Below, one piece after another: positions 11,284 through 46,155 of a stretch of 64,000 nucleotides of DNA. Made by a program: the position numbers and the translations under genes. Under the pieces are notes generated by a model. That model was not told the origin of the DNA, did no database searches, and saw nothing but the letters and a program-made list of their open reading frames with translations. This DNA is from an uncultured Schlesneria sp. (GTDB lineage: Bacteria > Planctomycetota > Planctomycetia > Planctomycetales > Planctomycetaceae): NCBI GenBank assembly GCA_903899985.1, contig CAIULL010000126.1, positions 170-64,169 on the forward strand, given 5' to 3'. How positions within the stretch are numbered: position 1 is the stretch's first letter; every line of letters starts with the position of its first letter.

Positions 11284-12903
11284 ATGCAAACACTCACTGA
11301 TCAACACCTGTTCGCTCGAAATCCCAAGGGGCTGTTGCTTGAGCTGGCGGAACAGCTTGATGTCGACAAGATCTTGACGCTCGCCGCTCAGCGGCTGAGT
11401 GAAGGGCCATCGGTCGCTTTGGTGCGGGTTTGGCTGCTGCAACCCCCACTCGCTGACGATTGCACCAGTTGCCGATTCGCCACAGAGTGCTTTCAACGCG
11501 ATCATTGCCTGCATCTGGTGGCGAGCTCTGGCCACTCTCTGGATAGTTCTGCTGACAGGTGGGATCGTCTCGATGGATCTTTCCGCCGGTTTCCGATCGG
11601 CATCCGAAAAGTTGGGCAGATCGCGAAATCTGGTAAGTCACTTGAAGTCTCGGAAATCACTGAAAACCACGCCTGGGTCGCGCGCCCGGAATGGGTGCGT
11701 GATGAAAAGATCACATCGTTTGCCGGTCATCCCCTCATCTTTCGTGGCCAGGTGCTCGGAGTGCTTGGGTTGTTCTCACGTCAGCCGCCCGGTGAATCGG
11801 GTTTTGAATGGTTACGAATGATTGCTGATCACCTCGCTGCCGCCATCGCGAACGCCAGGGCACTCAACGAAATCGAACTCCTTAAAAAGCGCTTGGAGCT
11901 CGAAAACGAGTACCTGCGAGAAGAAGTTCAGCAAGCGGAATCTTATGGTGAACTGGTTGGACAAAGCCCTGCCTTACAAGTGGTTTCGCGGCAGATTGAT
12001 CTCGTCGCACCAACCGATTCGTCGGTTCTGATCCTGGGCGAAAGCGGTACGGGCAAAGAGCTTGTCGCTCGTGAGTTACACCGCCGCAGCCGACGTGCAA
12101 GCCGCCCCTTGATCAAGGTTAATTGTGCCGCGATCCCACGAGAACTTTACGAGAGTGAGTTCTTCGGGCACGCGAAAGGAGCGTTTACCAGTGCCCTGCG
12201 TGATCGTGCCGGTCGATTTGAACTGGCCGACGGCGGGACATTGTTTCTCGACGAGATTGGAGAGATCCCGCTGGATCTTCAAGCCAAATTATTGCGCGTC
12301 CTGCAAGAGGGTGAGCTTGAGCGAGTGGGGGATGAAACAACTCGAAAAGTGGATGTCCGCATTCTTGCCGCCACCAATCGCAAACTTCGTGAAGAATCGG
12401 AAGCGGGCCGATTCCGACAGGATTTGTATTACCGGCTCAGTGTCTTTCCGATCGAACTGCCGCCGCTGCGCAATCGCATCGAGGATGTCCCACTGTTGGC
12501 CGAACAGTTTCTCGAACGTCTTTCGCGTAAGCTGGGACGACGCCGACCGAGATTGACTCTGGCCAATGTTCAAACGCTGCAGCAGTACAGTTGGCCCGGC
12601 AACATTCGAGAGCTTCAGCATGTCCTTGAGCGAGCCTCGATCGGTGCAACCGACGGACGCCTTCGACTGGAACTTCCTTCCGAAACAGCGAAGCGAAAGG
12701 TCTCGACGGAATCGACGAGTGAATCCGAACGAATTTTGACCGAGTCTGAAATGCGGAGTTTTGAAGCGAATAATATTCGATTGGCACTGAAAGCATCCGG
12801 CGGCAAAATCTATGGGCCGGACGGGGCTGCCGCAAGGCTGGGGGTGAAGCCAACAACACTCGCATCTCGGATCAAGATTCTTGAGATTTCGATCAGCAAA
12901 TGA
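11284..12903 (+). CDS. Sigma-54-interacting transcriptional activator (GAF + AAA+ + HTH, FhlA-like)
   Basis: GAF region, [18 protein letters not shown] loop, [28 protein letters not shown]-terminal [17 protein letters not shown]. Confidence 0.95.
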
Positions 12904-37000: not shown

Positions 37001-37144
37001 CACAACCTGAATCGTCGGATAATCAACCTGTGGCAGCGCAGAAACGGGCAGTTCCCAGTACGCGACAATCCCCGAGAGAAGCAGTGCCACCATCAGCAGC
37101 ACGGTCGCGACCGGCCGCAAAATAAATGGCCGGGACGGGTTCAT
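34040..37144 (-). CDS. mdtB: RND multidrug efflux permease MdtB
   Basis: [48 protein letters not shown]. Confidence 0.93.
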
Positions 37145-38622
37145 GTCGAACCCTTCTTACCAGAAGAATTTTCCGGGGGACCTTTTCCATCCCTGGACTT
37201 TGGTTTCTCGTCTGTTCCTTCAGGCTTTTTGCGTTCGTTATCAGGACTCTTTTCGTCTGGGCCCTTCTTTTCCGCCGCGGCGTTCTCTTTTGCCCGTTCT
37301 TTTTCCTTCTCTTTTTCGCGTGTCGTAATCATCGCCTTCGGCTGCAGCTTGTCGATCCCTTCAGTGACGACGATTTCACCAGGAGAAAGCCCGGATTCGA
37401 TGGACGTCTCTGAGCCTTCTGCCAGCCCGACTTTCACGGTTCGCAAGTCAACGGTGTCATCCTCTTGAACGACATACACAAATACAGAAGTGGGACCACG
37501 CTGAACTGCTGAGGTTGGTACGACGATCGCATTGCGTCTGGTATCCACCAGAAGCCGGGCATTGACGAATTGATTGGGAAACAGCATGCCGTCTTCGTTA
37601 TCAAAAACAGCTTTCAAGCGAACAGTACCGGTGGTGGAATCAACCTGATTGTCAATTGCCAACAGCTTTCCCGATGCGAGTTTGATTTTGAAATCGCGAT
37701 CATAGGCATCAACGGATAATGGTTGACCACTGCTCTGCGGCTTCTGGACCCGGGAAATATCATCCTGAGGAATGGTAAACACAATTGAAATCGGTTGAAG
37801 CTGCGTAATCACCGCCAGACCCATCGGATCGTTGGCCCTGACGATATTCCCCTGATCAACCAGGCGAAGGCCGATTCGACCACTGATTGGCGCGGTAATG
37901 TGACAGTAGGCGAGTTGCAGTTTCGCGTTCTCCACGGCAGCCAGGTCCGATTGAATGGCCCCTGCCATTTGCTGAACCAGGGCACGTTGTTCATCGACCT
38001 GCTGTGCCGTGATGGACTTGGAAAGAATCAGCTCTTGATAGCGTTTAAAGGTGAAGTCGGCTGACTTCAAGGTTGCTTCGTCCCGTGCAAGTTGTCCCTG
38101 GGCCTGCTGCAGTTGAACATCGAATGGCCGTCGGTCAATTTCTGCCAGCAAGCTTCCTTCTTCGACCACCTGACCTTCCGTGAAGGCGACTTTGACCAGT
38201 TCACCTTCGACACGGCTGCGAATGGTCACCGTCTTGAAGGCTGTGACGGTTCCCAACCCGTTGATAAAGACATCCATATCCTTCTGCTGCACGATTGCGG
38301 TGACGACAGGAACCGGCGGTCTCGGAGGCTTTTTTGCCCCGGCCGCGCCACTTTCCACAATGCCAATCTGCTTTGAGAACCAGGGCCACCAGGTCTCGCG
38401 ATAGACCCACCCTCCCGTACACAGACCAATCGCGATCAGCCAGAACAAAAGACTGCTGATCGCGCCCCACCATGTTCCAGCCGGTTCTGGTGAGGGAACG
38501 GGATTCGGATTCGGCAACTCAGAGACCGGCCGCTCGACTCGTTCCGGCGTGAAGACTGGTCGATCTTTCAGGGCTTCCGGAGAGGAAACAGGCCGGGCAA
38601 CGGGGGGTTTAGAAATCATCAA
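37141..38622 (-). CDS. mdtA: RND efflux membrane fusion protein MdtA
   Basis: [60 protein letters not shown]. Confidence 0.92.
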
Positions 38623-38925
38623 GCAGTACCTTAATCTCTCTTATTCCCGAACCCGAAGTCTGCTCATGTAGTCTTGCCGAGGATCTCACGTCGACCTGAT
38701 ACGCTCAGTGGAATCCCACAAATCTAAAACCCTGGAAAAGGAATTTCCATAAGCGAACAACGTTTTGCTCAGATCATGATCATTTCACAAACGTCTTGTG
38801 ACGTTTCTGCCATCAAAACCTCATGAAACGAGTCCGAACTTATGGATAATTCCTATTAATTAGTCTGAACGGGCAGCTTCACGACTTCGTGACCGTGATG
38901 ACGCAGCAAAGTCTGCGCCATGACT

Positions 38926-42735: not shown

Positions 42736-43971
42736 TTATGAAGCTTGAGTCGCCGAACGTATACAGAACTGGTAGTAAATTTCGGTCGCTTGATCGAGTT
42801 GTGAAATCTCGATCCATTCGTCTTTTGTATGAGCTTGTGCGATGTTGCCGGGGCCGAAGACAACGGACGGGACCCCTGCTCGCGCAAAGCGAGATGCGTG
42901 AGTTCCATACGGGACACCGATCGTTTTTCGCGGGCCGACCACCGCTTCAATCGCCTTCAATAATTCGAGTGACAACGCTCTGTTGTTATCGTCACCGAGT
43001 GCGGCGCTGGCACAATAGGGTGCATCGTGAATCACCTCGAAATCGAGTCGTGATCGCAGATGTTCGACCAGTTCGTCGATGACACCAAGCCGATCTTCCC
43101 CGGGGATGACTCGGCGATCAATTTCAATCGTACAGGCATCAGGAACGATGTTTACACTGCTTCCCCCATCGATTCGACCGACACTCAATGTCGCAGGACC
43201 GCAAAGAGGATGAGCGGGCCGAGAGCCAGGTAGCCAGGCTGCATACTCTTCCAGACATGCAACCACCTTCGCCATGCGGTAGATCGCGTTGATCCCTTCC
43301 TGGGGACGTGAACTATGGCAGGCTCGACCCGTTGTTCGCATCTTCCAGCGAGTCGCCCCGCGATGAGCGACGACGATATCAAGCTCTGTCGGTTCGGCGA
43401 CGATCGCCACATCGGGCCGGACCGGGCAAAGACGGTAGGACGCCGACTTTCCCGTCCAGCTGTCTGTCAGGTGATTGATACCAAGGCTTGTCGACTCTTC
43501 ATCACATGTCATCGACAACACGACATTCGGAATGCCGACAGGCCGTTCGTGAGCCAGTCGAGTGAACGCGGCCAGCATCGCCGCCAGGCCACCTTTGACA
43601 TCGCAGGACCCGCGGCCGTAAAGACGACCCGATTGCTCAATCGGATCAAACGGGGCGATTGTCATGCCATCCACCGGAACGGTGTCTTGATGAGCGTCCA
43701 GCAGTACGGTCCTGGTAGCGCCGGGCGAGTCGAGACGAGCCAGCACATTCGATCGACCCGGGACGATCTCGACTTGTTCGAATGGAACGCCAAGCTCCGT
43801 AAGATAACGGACAAGATATTCCGTGACGCGAGTTTCGAAGTACCCAGGTCCCGAGACGTCTCGCCCCATCGGGTTCACACTCGGGATGGCAATCAGGTCT
43901 TTGAGTAACTTTAAGGAGACTGACAAAGGAGCGGATCCTGACAACGAGTTCTCGAACGGTTTTTCATTCAA
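42736..43971 (-). CDS. M20-family metallopeptidase/deacylase (ArgE/DapE-like)
   Basis: LLDAHQDTVP, YGRGSCDVKGG, CDEE, VAEPT, HSSRP, AHTKDEW. Confidence 0.92.
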   Translation of the reverse strand: MNEKPFENSLSGSAPLSVSLKLLKDLIAIPSVNPMGRDVSGPGYFETRVTEYLVRYLTELGVPFEQVEIVPGRSNVLARLDSPGATRTVLLDAHQDTVPVDGMTIAPFDPIEQSGRLYGRGSCDVKGGLAAMLAAFTRLAHERPVGIPNVVLSMTCDEESTSLGINHLTDSWTGKSASYRLCPVRPDVAIVAEPTELDIVVAHRGATRWKMRTTGRACHSSRPQEGINAIYRMAKVVACLEEYAAWLPGSRPAHPLCGPATLSVGRIDGGSSVNIVPDACTIEIDRRVIPGEDRLGVIDELVEHLRSRLDFEVIHDAPYCASAALGDDNNRALSLELLKAIEAVVGPRKTIGVPYGTHASRFARAGVPSVVFGPGNIAQAHTKDEWIEISQLDQATEIYYQFCIRSATQAS

Positions 43972-44206
43972 CGACCAGACCTATGCTGTCCGGAAGACTT
44001 TAGCCGTTCGCATCGCAGTTTCACATTCTAAATGGTTGATGCGTCGCAATTCCGAAGCCGCTCTTCATTCCTCTTTGTCTGAAAACGGTCACTGACGTCC
44101 AACGCATCTTAGTTCGGACGTCGGCATGCCACGGTGGACAGGGGCCCGTCCTCGACTTCAGGCCACGACTGCACTCCCCTTTTGCAACTTTTTCAATCGA
44201 GAATGC

Positions 44207-44221
44207 TTGTAATCGTTACAA
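44207..44221. promoter_or_regulatory. Palindrome upstream of the sigma-54 promoter, candidate activator site
   Basis: TTGTAA-TCG-TTACAA, about 120 bp upstream of the -24 element. Confidence 0.45.
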
Positions 44222-44337
44222 TTCCGAGGCTTCAAAAAAGGTTCACACTCGATAACGTCGAAGTTCCTGCATGAAAACAGGCTGTTTTTCAGGGGTGTTC
44301 GCGATTCGGCGAAAAAATCTTTCAAGAAATACCCTTT

Positions 44338-44353
44338 TGGCACGCCGACTGCT
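44338..44353 (+). promoter_or_regulatory. Sigma-54 (-24/-12) promoter
   Basis: TGGCACGCCGACTGCT matches TGGCACG-N4-TTGCW with one mismatch and exact GG-N10-GC spacing. Confidence 0.75.
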
Positions 44354-44363
44354 TTAGTCAGCA

Positions 44364-44536
44364 TCGGAGTGAACAATCACCCAAGTGATTCACGCAACTA
44401 CTCTTCAGTAGTTCGAGATTCATACATCCTGCCGGCCTGAGGGAGACAGGCCAAGCACCCGCCTACAGCACACCTCGACTTTCCGCCTACACAGGCCGGT
44501 ACGTTGCCCGCAGCGTACCGGCCTCTCGCCTTCTTT
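44364..44536 (+). ncRNA. Putative sigma-54-dependent small RNA
   Basis: Four hairpins (44369-44393, 44396-44413, 44434-44452, 44493-44524) and a pyrimidine/U tail downstream of the promoter; no plausible plus-strand gene follows. Ends are estimates. Confidence 0.55.
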
Positions 44537-44559
44537 GGGTGTCAAAAACGTTGATCCTT

Positions 44560-44639
44560 CGTTAACCCGACGCGCGAGCGAGGGATCTTATTCCCGTTTA
44601 AAAGAAGAGCAGATCCCTCGCTTGCGCGTCGGGCTAACG
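44560..44639. repeat. REP-like inverted repeat (CCCGACGCGCGAGCGAGGGA family)
   Basis: CGTTAACCCGACGCGCGAGCGAGGGATCT ... AGATCCCTCGCTTGCGCGTCGGGCTAACG. Confidence 0.82.
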
Positions 44640-44661: not shown

Positions 44662-46155
44662 CTATTTCGCCCGTTTCACCAGATCGAGAAATCGTCCATA
44701 GGCATCGTTCCATTGCGCCGTGTTCTGCGGTTCGTACCGCTGCATCGTGGAGGAAGCTCGGACGATGTCGCGGATCTGGCCCAGTGAACCGACCGAACCG
44801 CTGGTTCGTGCCTGAACCAGAACGTTGCCGAGTGCCGTGGCTTCGACCGGACCCGTGATGACCGGTCGGCCTGTGGCGTTGGCGGTGAATTGATTGAGCA
44901 ATTCATTCTGAGTCCCTCCACCTACGATGTGGATGACTTCAGTCTTCTCACCAGACAATTCTTCGAGCCAGCCAAGGACCATTCGATACTTGAGTGCCAG
45001 GCTTTCCAGGGCACAGCGGATCAGGCCTCCGTCCGTATCCGGAATTTCCTGATTCGTCGCACGGCACCAATCCCGAATCGCCTCGGGCATATCATGCGGT
45101 GCCAGAAAGGCAGGGGAATCAGGATCGACGAAAGCTCGGAACGGTCTGGCATCGCGAGCAACCTGAGCCAGCAACCCGTAGTCATAAGCAGAACCGCTCC
45201 GTTCGAACGACTTGCGGCATTCCTGCACCAGCCACAAACCCATGATGTTCTTCAGCAGTCGGTATGTCCCATCAATCCCACCTTCGTTGGTGACGTTCAG
45301 CTCGAGCGCCCGCTGAGTCAGGACTGCATGCGGCAATTCGAGACCCATCAGCGACCAGGTTCCTGAGCTGATATAGGCCCAGTTCGCTGATCCCGTTCGT
45401 TCCGTCGGAACGGCAGCGATGGCGGCACCAGTATCATGCGTGGCGGGGGCGACAACTTCGAGACGAGGCAAGCCGGCCCGTCTGGCGACATCCTCACGTA
45501 ATCTTCCCAGCTTCGTTCCTGGTGCGACAACTTCGGGGAACATCTGCGTCGGAAGCCCAAGCTTTCGCAGCATGTCGATCGACCAGTTTCGATTTGTGGG
45601 ATGATACATTTGCGACGTGGTCGCATTCGTGAATTCGACAACTCGACTTCCCGACAACAGCCAGTGAAAGAAGTCAGGAATCATCAGAAACTTGTCGGCC
45701 ATTTCGACCAGAGCCGGGTTTGTCTGATTCATCGCCAGCAACTGGTACAGCGAGTTAATCTCCATGAACTGCAGGCCGGTATTGGCAAAGACCTCGGCTC
45801 GCGGAACACGCTGGAACGTATGTTCCATGACGCCACGAGTTCTCGCGTCGCGATAGTGGTAGGGTTGCCCCAGCATTTCGCCGGTCTTTGAGAGCAGCAC
45901 GAAATCGACCCCCCATGTGTCGACTCCGACGGAAACAATGTTCTGTCCGAAGCGGGCAGCCGCCTTTTGAAGTCCAACCTGGATCTGCGACCACAGCCTT
46001 AACAGATCCCAGCGCATCGTATCGGCGACGTTGACAGGTCCGTTCGAAAATCGATGCAGTTCTTCCAGGCGAATGTGCTGACCATCGAACATCCCCGCCA
46101 TGACACGGCCACTTTCCGCACCCAAATCGATCGCCAGATAAACCTGTTCTGCCAT
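44662..46155 (-). CDS. rhaB: Rhamnulokinase (FGGY carbohydrate kinase)
   Basis: [70 protein letters not shown]. Confidence 0.9.

Follow-up and report, generated by a model that had tools for sequence, protein, structure and literature searches.

A conserved candidate gene for a sigma-54-dependent small RNA of a new family in Schlesneria (Planctomycetota)

Small regulatory RNAs (sRNAs) whose synthesis depends on sigma-54 have been described so far mostly in Proteobacteria and Campylobacter. The Qrr sRNAs of Vibrio are controlled by LuxO and sigma-54, and the LuxO sites of V. cholerae take the form TTGCA-N3-TGCAA (PMC10328515). NrsZ of Pseudomonas aeruginosa is dependent on NtrC and sigma-54 and is processed to a shorter active form (PMC4253122). 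GlmY and GlmZ of the Enterobacteriaceae are governed by GlrR/QseF together with sigma-54 (PMC3045617). Sigma-54 is present in the class Planctomycetia according to the literature, and sigma-54 regulons have been predicted in this class (PMC12316311). Literature searches recovered no planctomycete or Schlesneria sRNA like the one described here, which is located in a 64,000-nucleotide stretch of DNA, termed the window, from an uncultured Schlesneria sp. (GenBank assembly GCA_903899985.1, contig CAIULL010000126.1, positions 170 to 64,169 of the forward strand). An interpretation made previously from the nucleotide sequence without database searches, referred to here as the sequence-only reading, proposed that a sigma-54 promoter in an intergenic gap drives the synthesis of a structured sRNA. 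That proposal is supported by a conserved promoter and upstream sites, by the separateness of the unit from its neighbors, by conservation of the RNA above that of coding DNA, by covarying stems, by metatranscriptome contigs, and by the absence of an Rfam match. With a probability of roughly 0.6, the block at 44180-44539 is a self-contained gene for a plus-strand, enhancer-dependent, sigma-54-transcribed, trans-acting sRNA of ~175 nt that belongs to a new family. The sRNA thus adds a new family to a known kind of RNA; so far it has been found only in a Schlesneria clade, and it is visibly expressed in nature.

The sRNA most likely works like Qrr, NrsZ or GlmY/GlmZ, but is a member of none of these families. 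Scans with Rfam 15 at the gathering score produced no matches in the window and seven further loci. When the element and its most divergent homologue were scanned at E<=10, only spurious microRNA matches were returned, either on an 80-nt palindrome located beyond the element or on the terminator hairpin. The sequence-only reading likewise recognized no known family. With Qrr the locus shares a stand-alone sRNA gene, a -24/-12 promoter, palindromic activator sites upstream, four stem-loops of which the last is terminator-like, and an extreme invariance of the unpaired or pairing regions. The activator sites also resemble palindromes of the NtrC/LuxO type in format, being TTGCAA-N3-TTTCAA and TTGTAA-N3-TTACAA, but the spacing of the half-sites differs, as TTGTA-N5-TACAA when these are written as 5-mers, and the resemblance is a lead rather than an identification. 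In further contrast to Qrr, the RNA is ~175 nt instead of ~100 nt, matches no covariance model, has no luxO-like gene adjoining it, and occurs as a single copy in the 64-kb window, in which there also is no second copy of the enhancer. To our knowledge, no link with quorum sensing is known in Planctomycetota. NrsZ is similar in its enhancer dependence and repeated modules, and an abundant ~107-nt insert (44424-44530) recovered in RNA sequencing data suggests that the Schlesneria sRNA is processed similarly. However, NrsZ is composed of stem-loop repeats, three in number and alike, while the only duplication here is that of a 9-nt motif. There also is no sequence or model similarity between the two and no sign of a nitrogen link at this locus. 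The arrangement at glmY and glmZ, in which several activator sites are placed >100 bp upstream and are followed by a bendable region and then by the -24/-12 element, is similar to that at this locus, although the Rfam models for these RNAs do not match it. The sites bound by GlrR are of the type TGTC-N10-GACA, unlike those described below, and the Schlesneria sRNA is not known to have a target of the glmS type. Protein titration, by which GlmY acts, is the foremost alternative mechanism for the Schlesneria sRNA.

Homologues of the element were collected by pattern search in a set of genomes with a single representative of each species. Seven genomes of Schlesneria were retrieved, among them the closed chromosome of the cultured strain T3-172 (L009; loci are denoted by L numbers). 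A scan of metagenome contigs with a pattern for the linker, another part of the RNA, yielded only three further loci, and lookup of neighboring genes added one more. The conservation set comprises 11 Schlesneria genomes and contigs; the promoter and upstream region is included in 10 homologues, and the fold alignment contains 12 sequences. The conserved block spans 44180-44539: similarity starts at ~44180 and ends immediately after CTTCTTTGGG (44539), and the flanks either are unalignable or carry different genes. In a related organism, A, detected when public assemblies were aligned to the region, one of 205 bases differs in 44334-44538, compared to 43 of 364 positions in coding DNA on the side of the M20 peptidase gene to the left and 34 of 239 on the side of the rhamnulokinase gene (rhaB) to the right. 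Across loci, identity of the RNA to the window is 100, 98-99, 92, and 85%, whereas identities of flanking coding DNA are 86-90, 73-80, and 75-79%; the remaining intergenic DNA is unalignable. Judged from these patterns of substitution, selection is shown to act on the promoter, the enhancer sites, their spacing and the RNA. The locus stands above chance because of this conservation across genomes and the covariation described below.

The motif TGGCACGCCGACTGCT at 44338-44353 on the plus strand corresponds to TGGCACG-N4-CTGCT and differs by one core mismatch from the sigma-54 consensus TGGCACG-N4-TTGCW. The -24/-12 promoter as a whole (TGGCAC-GCCGA-CTGCTT, 44338-44354, plus strand) has an invariant core around a free N5. 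TGGCAC and TGCTT, inclusive of the GG and GC dinucleotides, are identical in all 10 homologues, the base that precedes TGCTT is G in L014 but C in the nine other homologues, and the N5 element varies freely as GCCGA, GGGGG, ATAGC, GCGGT, GCAGA, and ACGGG. The sigma-54 promoter which the sequence-only reading placed at this position is well supported by the invariance of its core over a variable spacer. A promoter scan detected no sigma-70 promoter in the intergenic gap.

Two putative activator sites of the type TTGNAA-N3-TTNCAA, neither of which has an assigned strand, are located upstream of the promoter. Site 1 (TTGCAACTTTTTCAA, 44182-44196), a putative enhancer-binding-protein site, is situated at ~-182 to -168 from the predicted start. 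It is identical in nine of 10 homologues and has one changed base in L014, is surrounded by unalignable intergenic DNA, and occurs once in the window. Site 2, a perfect palindrome (TTGTAA-TCG-TTACAA, 44207-44221) at ~-157 to -143, has half-sites that are invariant in the 10 homologues around a central N3 of TCG, GCG, CCG, CGC, or GCA, and its pattern has no other match in the window. The 44-bp upstream block is kept in the 10 homologues with an identical sequence between the sites. Nine sequences have 115-118 bp between site 2 and TGGCAC even though the intervening DNA is largely unalignable. In L010 this distance is 148 bp (2566-2710, compared to 44222-44337 in the window), and the difference of 32 bp, equivalent to approximately three helical turns, is consistent with a constraint on the face of the helix. 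The upstream palindrome that was pointed out in the sequence-only reading therefore is conserved, is accompanied by a second related site, and retains its spacing from the promoter. Two further features lie between enhancer and promoter, again with no assigned strand. An imperfect palindrome, TGAAAACAGGCTGTTTTTCA (44272-44291, ~-92 to -73), has a partly conserved GTTTTTCA core, with (G)TTTTTCA(A/G)G retained in most homologues, and possibly is a site for a bending protein or a third regulator site. An A-tract, CGAAAAAATC (44310-44319, ~-54 to -45), coincides with an A/T-rich run in most homologues and possibly bends the DNA intrinsically between enhancer and promoter. This geometry is as expected for an AAA+ activator that would loop to the sigma-54 holoenzyme, and transcription presumably is dependent on both.

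A search for Walker-A and GAFTGA motifs disclosed no enhancer-binding protein near the RNA in any locus. The sole match was a gene of the window 32 kb from the sRNA (11284-12903, plus strand) which specifies a sigma-54 activator. The protein has a GAF, a Sigma54_activat, and an AAA-lid domain, and its GAFTGA loop has the variant sequence GAFTSA; nothing ties this gene to the sRNA promoter. The rpoN gene is absent from the 64-kb window. A separate sigma-54-like motif, TGGCGCAGACTTTGCT at 38905-38920 on the minus strand, is located ~280 nt upstream of a gene for an HlyD-type membrane-fusion protein (37141-38622) and may be a second sigma-54 promoter of the window.

The predicted primary transcript is ~175 nt in length (44364-44539, plus strand), with a start placed 12 nt after the C of the -12 element and a 3′ end within the tail CUCGCCUUCUUUGGG. 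Consensus folding of the 12 sequences produced four helices with 40 consensus pairs in which standard pairs account for 99.3% of 422 sequence-by-pair cells. Double, compensatory changes are evident at eight pairs, five in helix P2 and three in P4. The observed covariation values were reached by none of 500 shuffles, and control alignments with slid partners were paired at 22-40%. Folding of 44364-44540 gave minimum free energy z-scores of -3.26 for the plus strand and -1.56 for the minus strand. Unpaired columns are ~72% invariant, similar to paired columns. Conservation of the stems and of the -24/-12 element in relatives, which the sequence-only reading suggested as a check, is apparent for both, and the stems covary.

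The first hairpin of the consensus fold, P1 (GGAGUGA-ACAA-UCACCC, 44366-44382), has six pairs of which five never vary and therefore offers no covariation evidence. P2 (44385-44423) is a long hairpin in which 15 pairs, with interruptions, are capped by a CUUC loop. Compensation at its five covarying pairs is exemplified by replacement of ACUACU/AGUAGU with AUCAUC/GAUGAU in L009 and L012, and the apical part seemingly is replaced yet pairable in 5′ loose ends of contigs from sequencing runs X39 (30 nt) and X46 (23 nt), although these two instances are weak. The 3′ strand of P2 contributes the first 11 nt of a conserved stretch, UCGAGAUUCAUACAUCCUGCC (44413-44433), the remainder of which forms linker 1. 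This stretch is invariant in the 12 sequences except for three C/U transitions, positions 44424-44429 within it are predicted to be unpaired, and it is a candidate region for pairing or processing. P3 (GGCCUG-AGGGAGA-CAGGCC, 44434-44452), whose loop presents A-N-GGA, is fully invariant in the 12 sequences, including loci found by a pattern that did not specify P3, and shows no covariation. Four variants from RNA runs also have no listed difference at 44426-44465. Linker 2 (44453-44492) is a C/A-rich segment of 40 nt that is predicted to be mostly unpaired and that bears CCGCCUACA at 44459-44467 and again at 44483-44491. The linker is nearly invariant, the first copy of the motif being CCGCCCACA in L012 and the second being degenerate in L010, and partition-function folding leaves both linkers open. 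The repeat CCGCCTACA at 44459 and 44483 noted in the sequence-only reading is readily observed in the sequence. P4 (44493-44524) is a terminator-like hairpin of 13 pairs, an inverted repeat with a GCCCGC loop, in which the three compensated pairs involve changes of U-A to G-C or A-U, of A-U to G-C, and of G-C to C-G. It is followed by the 3′ tail CUCGCCUUCUUUGGG (44525-44539), within which CTCGCCTT-T-T does not vary among the full-length homologues. The RNA closes with CUCGCCUUCUUU after the 13-bp GC hairpin. All of these structural features are assigned to the plus strand.

The motifs listed in the sequence-only reading all occur at the coordinates given there, and three of its four hairpins are present in this fold, namely AACTACT/AGTAGTT, GGCCTG-AGGGAGA-CAGGCC, and the stem AGGCCGGTACG.../...CGTACCGGCCT followed by CTCGCCTTCTTT. 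The first, GTGAACAATCAC/GTGATTCAC, is not part of the consensus: the alignment favors instead the short P1, with GUGAUUCACG as the base of P2. This fold fits a G.U/A-U alternation at one position of P2, which in the earlier pairing would be a disruption of C-G to C.A. Pairing of the 5′ arm of P3 with the 5′ arm of the terminator (CCGGCCUG/CAGGCCGG, an inverted repeat), as in an attenuator or riboswitch, also was considered and rejected, as L009 and L012 do not preserve it although they have compensatory changes within the terminator stem. A riboswitch or attenuating leader further is at odds with the convergent orientation of the downstream gene in most loci.

The sRNA block in the window is flanked to the left by the gene for an M20 peptidase (42736-43971, minus strand) and to the right by that for an FGGY kinase named as rhamnulokinase by its homologues (rhaB, 44662-46155, minus strand). 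Both positions and homologue names agree with the flanking genes assigned previously. The same two genes flank the block in L005, L009, L010, and L011, and among partial loci the M20 side alone is present in L007 and L015 and the rhaB side alone in L008. However, the left neighbor is a gene for a GlgX-like isoamylase in L006 and L014 and another gene in L012. In L013 the right neighbor is a gene for an SMP-30/gluconolactonase which is co-directional with the proposed sRNA. The rhaB gene is convergent on the block in seven loci, and in all four contexts seen the gene to the left is encoded by the minus strand, opposite to the proposed sRNA. As its boundaries are kept beside differing genes, the block is, on this comparative evidence, a self-standing unit and not part of a neighboring gene. 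The nearest named relative is Schlesneria paludicola (91% amino-acid identity), which places the organism in Schlesneria (Planctomycetaceae). No copy of the sRNA adjoins the rhaB homologues in L001-L004, which include the S. paludicola type strain, or the M20 homologues of <=80% identity that were inspected in six lookups (eight loci, L016-L023). Thus, the element is not tied to either gene outside a Schlesneria subclade.

Contigs of 151-296 nt that cover the body of the RNA were assembled from 11 declared metatranscriptomes of wetland, soil, permafrost, and plant-associated origin. In 10 of the 11, no sequence upstream of 44364, the predicted start, is included. The best contig, obtained from X14 at a depth of 12, terminates two bases from that position, at 44366, and in three others the end is 14-19 nt within the RNA. 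At the opposite side, six contigs run 21-136 nt beyond the P4 hairpin and then stop, as is more readily explained by a leaky terminator than by a long mRNA. In X14, the contig connects the sRNA with the 3′ end of rhaB and enters this gene by 50 nt, with no coverage past 44711. In the plant-associated metatranscriptome X25, the insert that spans 44424-44530 (~107 nt) is bounded on both sides by Illumina adapters at a depth of 16-43. The left end of this insert is within the AU-rich UUCAUACAU stretch, and the insert suggests a stable processed 3′ fragment with P3, the linker, and the terminator.

The following sequence of events is proposed. An NtrC-type bacterial enhancer-binding protein would bind the two 15-bp sites ~145-180 bp upstream, loop over the fixed spacer of ~116 bp, and activate RNA polymerase-sigma-54 at TGGCAC-N5-CTGCTT, with transcription starting near 44364 and probably ending leakily at the 13-bp GC hairpin and its CUCGCCUUCUUU tail. 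Within the RNA, P2 may serve as a structural spacer. The two invariant single-stranded stretches, including the duplicated CCGCCUACA, most likely would pair with mRNAs in trans and thereby alter translation or stability, a mode of action that we infer. Activity possibly follows processing to the ~107-nt 3′ fragment in which P3, the C-rich linker, and the terminator are kept. A more ambitious version of this scheme, in which the sRNA is the output of a dedicated NtrC/LuxO-type pathway and a Qrr-like master switch in Schlesneria, is possible but doubtful. In this version a single enhancer-binding protein would translate a signal, either environmental or from the population, into bursts of an abundant sRNA that pairs with several mRNAs and also forms part of a ribonucleoprotein, the dual role being suggested because nearly every base is invariant. 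If true, no circuit of sigma-54 and an sRNA, and no sRNA regulator with a defined function, would precede this one in the Planctomycetes-Verrucomicrobia-Chlamydiae superphylum, and it could be read out directly in metatranscriptomes of peat and soil.

Several observations weigh against the assignment of the block as a sigma-54-driven, trans-acting sRNA gene. The sigma-54 pattern with <=1 mismatch has three matches in the window compared to 2.04 expected, so that the motif by itself is at chance level. The pairing of P1 and P3 is a prediction, as invariance leaves no covariation in these helices, and the U-rich run begins 7 nt past the P4 stem, such that a simple terminator scan makes no call. 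Duplex folding and searches with seed complements against the gene starts of the window gave no targets above background in the 64 kb, with results that shuffled seeds equaled, and the suggestion of the sequence-only reading that the C-rich motifs are seeds for G-rich ribosome-binding sites is not supported by this search. Members of the family were detected in Schlesneria alone. Among the transcript data, a soil contig from X24 (depth 2.1) possesses 91 nt 5′ of 44422 that are unaligned and due to which its 5′ end cannot be placed; without indels it would reach beyond the predicted start by ~33 nt in the upstream direction. X34 and X36, two runs that are only guessed to be RNA, also have contigs which span the promoter. 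Adapter-bearing contigs from X25 and X36 carry read 1 on the plus strand, which implies a minus-strand RNA if the libraries are of the dUTP type; tRNA-Lys of L007, inspected as a strandedness control for these two runs, gave no adapter-bearing contigs. The strand, the 5′ end, and RpoN dependence are inferences rather than experimental results. Finally, the near-total invariance of the RNA exceeds what a seed-pairing sRNA usually needs and may reflect protein partners.

This last point leads to the main rival, in which the sigma-54-driven RNA binds or titrates a protein, as GlmY, CrcZ, and RsmY/Z do. The protein could be CsrA, with the AGGGAGA loop and the GGA near the 5′ end as its contacts, or another RNA-binding protein that recognizes the duplicated CCGCCUACA. 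Invariance at almost every base suits protein contacts, and P3, its A-N-GGA loop, and both linkers are invariant. The loop is reminiscent of CsrB, RsmY, and RsmZ, and CsrA genes with predicted sigma-54 promoters have been reported in Planctomycetia (PMC12316311). However, known CsrA sponges have many GGA sites whereas a single GGA is presented in a loop here (44440-44446), and the binding of CsrA by this loop that the sequence-only reading offered as an alternative is not supported. The second, at the 5′ end, is partly paired and is not universal, as it is lost in L014 where the sequence is AGAGUGA; these features, and the lack of an Rfam match, led to rejection of a CsrA sponge of the usual kind. 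Each copy of CCGCCUACA also is changed in some lineage, which disfavors a protein that recognizes this motif. Protein titration is accordingly judged unlikely in comparison with pairing in trans.

A second rival reverses the strand: the functional transcript would be a minus-strand RNA, either an element of the rhaB 3′ untranslated region or read-through, or the 5′ leader of the left-hand gene. The adapter orientation in X25 and X36 fits such a transcript if the libraries are dUTP-stranded, the 3′ end of rhaB and the element are united in the X14 contig, and the left-hand gene always is opposite to the proposed sRNA. A minus-strand transcript nevertheless is improbable, and the plus strand is favored for several reasons. 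The -24/-12 element is oriented, invariant, and properly spaced, and an RNA contig ends beside the start predicted from it; a transcript of the minus strand leaves this element and the enhancer sites unexplained. The hairpin followed by the tail makes sense only on the plus strand. Thirteen cells that are G.U pairs on the plus strand become A.C mismatches on the minus strand, compared to two in the other direction, and the minus-strand fold has the weaker z-score. To the right of 44539 there is neither a conserved sequence nor a promoter and the neighbor changes, as it also does to the left, with the right-hand gene of L013 being co-directional with the sRNA. Moreover, the RNA contigs are short and none proceeds into the rhaB coding region past 44711.

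Also improbable, and to a degree that calls for little weight, is a plus-strand transcript whose main purpose lies downstream. In this case the promoter would chiefly generate an RNA that is antisense in cis to the 3′ end of rhaB or, as in L013, a read-through or sense leader, with the structured part acting as a stabilizing 5′ module. The six contigs that continue beyond the hairpin, the 50 nt of rhaB in the X14 contig, and the convergence of rhaB in seven loci accord with this possibility. But conservation does not continue past the tail, the gene downstream differs among loci, an insert resembling repetitive extragenic palindromes is variably present between the element and rhaB, and it is the unpaired linkers, not the sequence after them, that are most conserved. 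Production of a small protein, whether from the 23-codon GTG open reading frame at 44369-44440 that the sequence-only reading raised as an alternative function or from a minus-strand frame, is very improbable, for although the 23-codon frame is open in seven of eight full-length homologues it is frameshifted to six codons in L010, GGAG overlaps the GTG without ribosome-binding-site spacing, substitutions in the stems are compensatory and not synonymous, conservation runs 100 nt past the stop, and the minus-strand frames have no starts and are broken in L006.

The trans-acting sRNA that is the preferred interpretation would extend the range of sigma-54-dependent sRNAs to a distant phylum. Post-transcriptional control appears to be largely unexplored in the planctomycetes that are abundant in peat, soil, and freshwater, and the locus provides a compact, testable circuit of activator sites, -24/-12 promoter, and structured RNA with candidate seeds which is carried by a cultured strain, T3-172, whose genome is closed. 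As the RNA was assembled from many wetland, soil, and permafrost metatranscriptomes, it could report in situ on the signal to which the activator responds.

Two minor observations concern the DNA at either side of the block. The open reading frame of the M20 peptidase as listed commences with TTG at 43971 and encodes 411 amino acids, but its homologues are 386-396 amino acids in length and cover 93-96%. The start in the window probably is ~15-25 codons further downstream (within 43908-43971), which would lengthen the intergenic gap. Between the sRNA tail and the rhaB stop codon is a palindrome of 80 nt (44560-44639) with 29-bp arms that are 93% complementary. It is a multicopy element like repetitive extragenic palindromes or miniature inverted-repeat transposable elements, is found with other flanks in several assemblies, and in one related organism has a word depth of ~520 compared to 6-8 in the surroundings. 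The palindrome is missing at this site in the relative represented by X14, in which 44542 is joined to 44662, whereas in L005 and L012 this spacer contains related copies. Contigs from X9 break at the spacer, and their loose ends read as partial reverse complements, suggesting a different palindromic insert.

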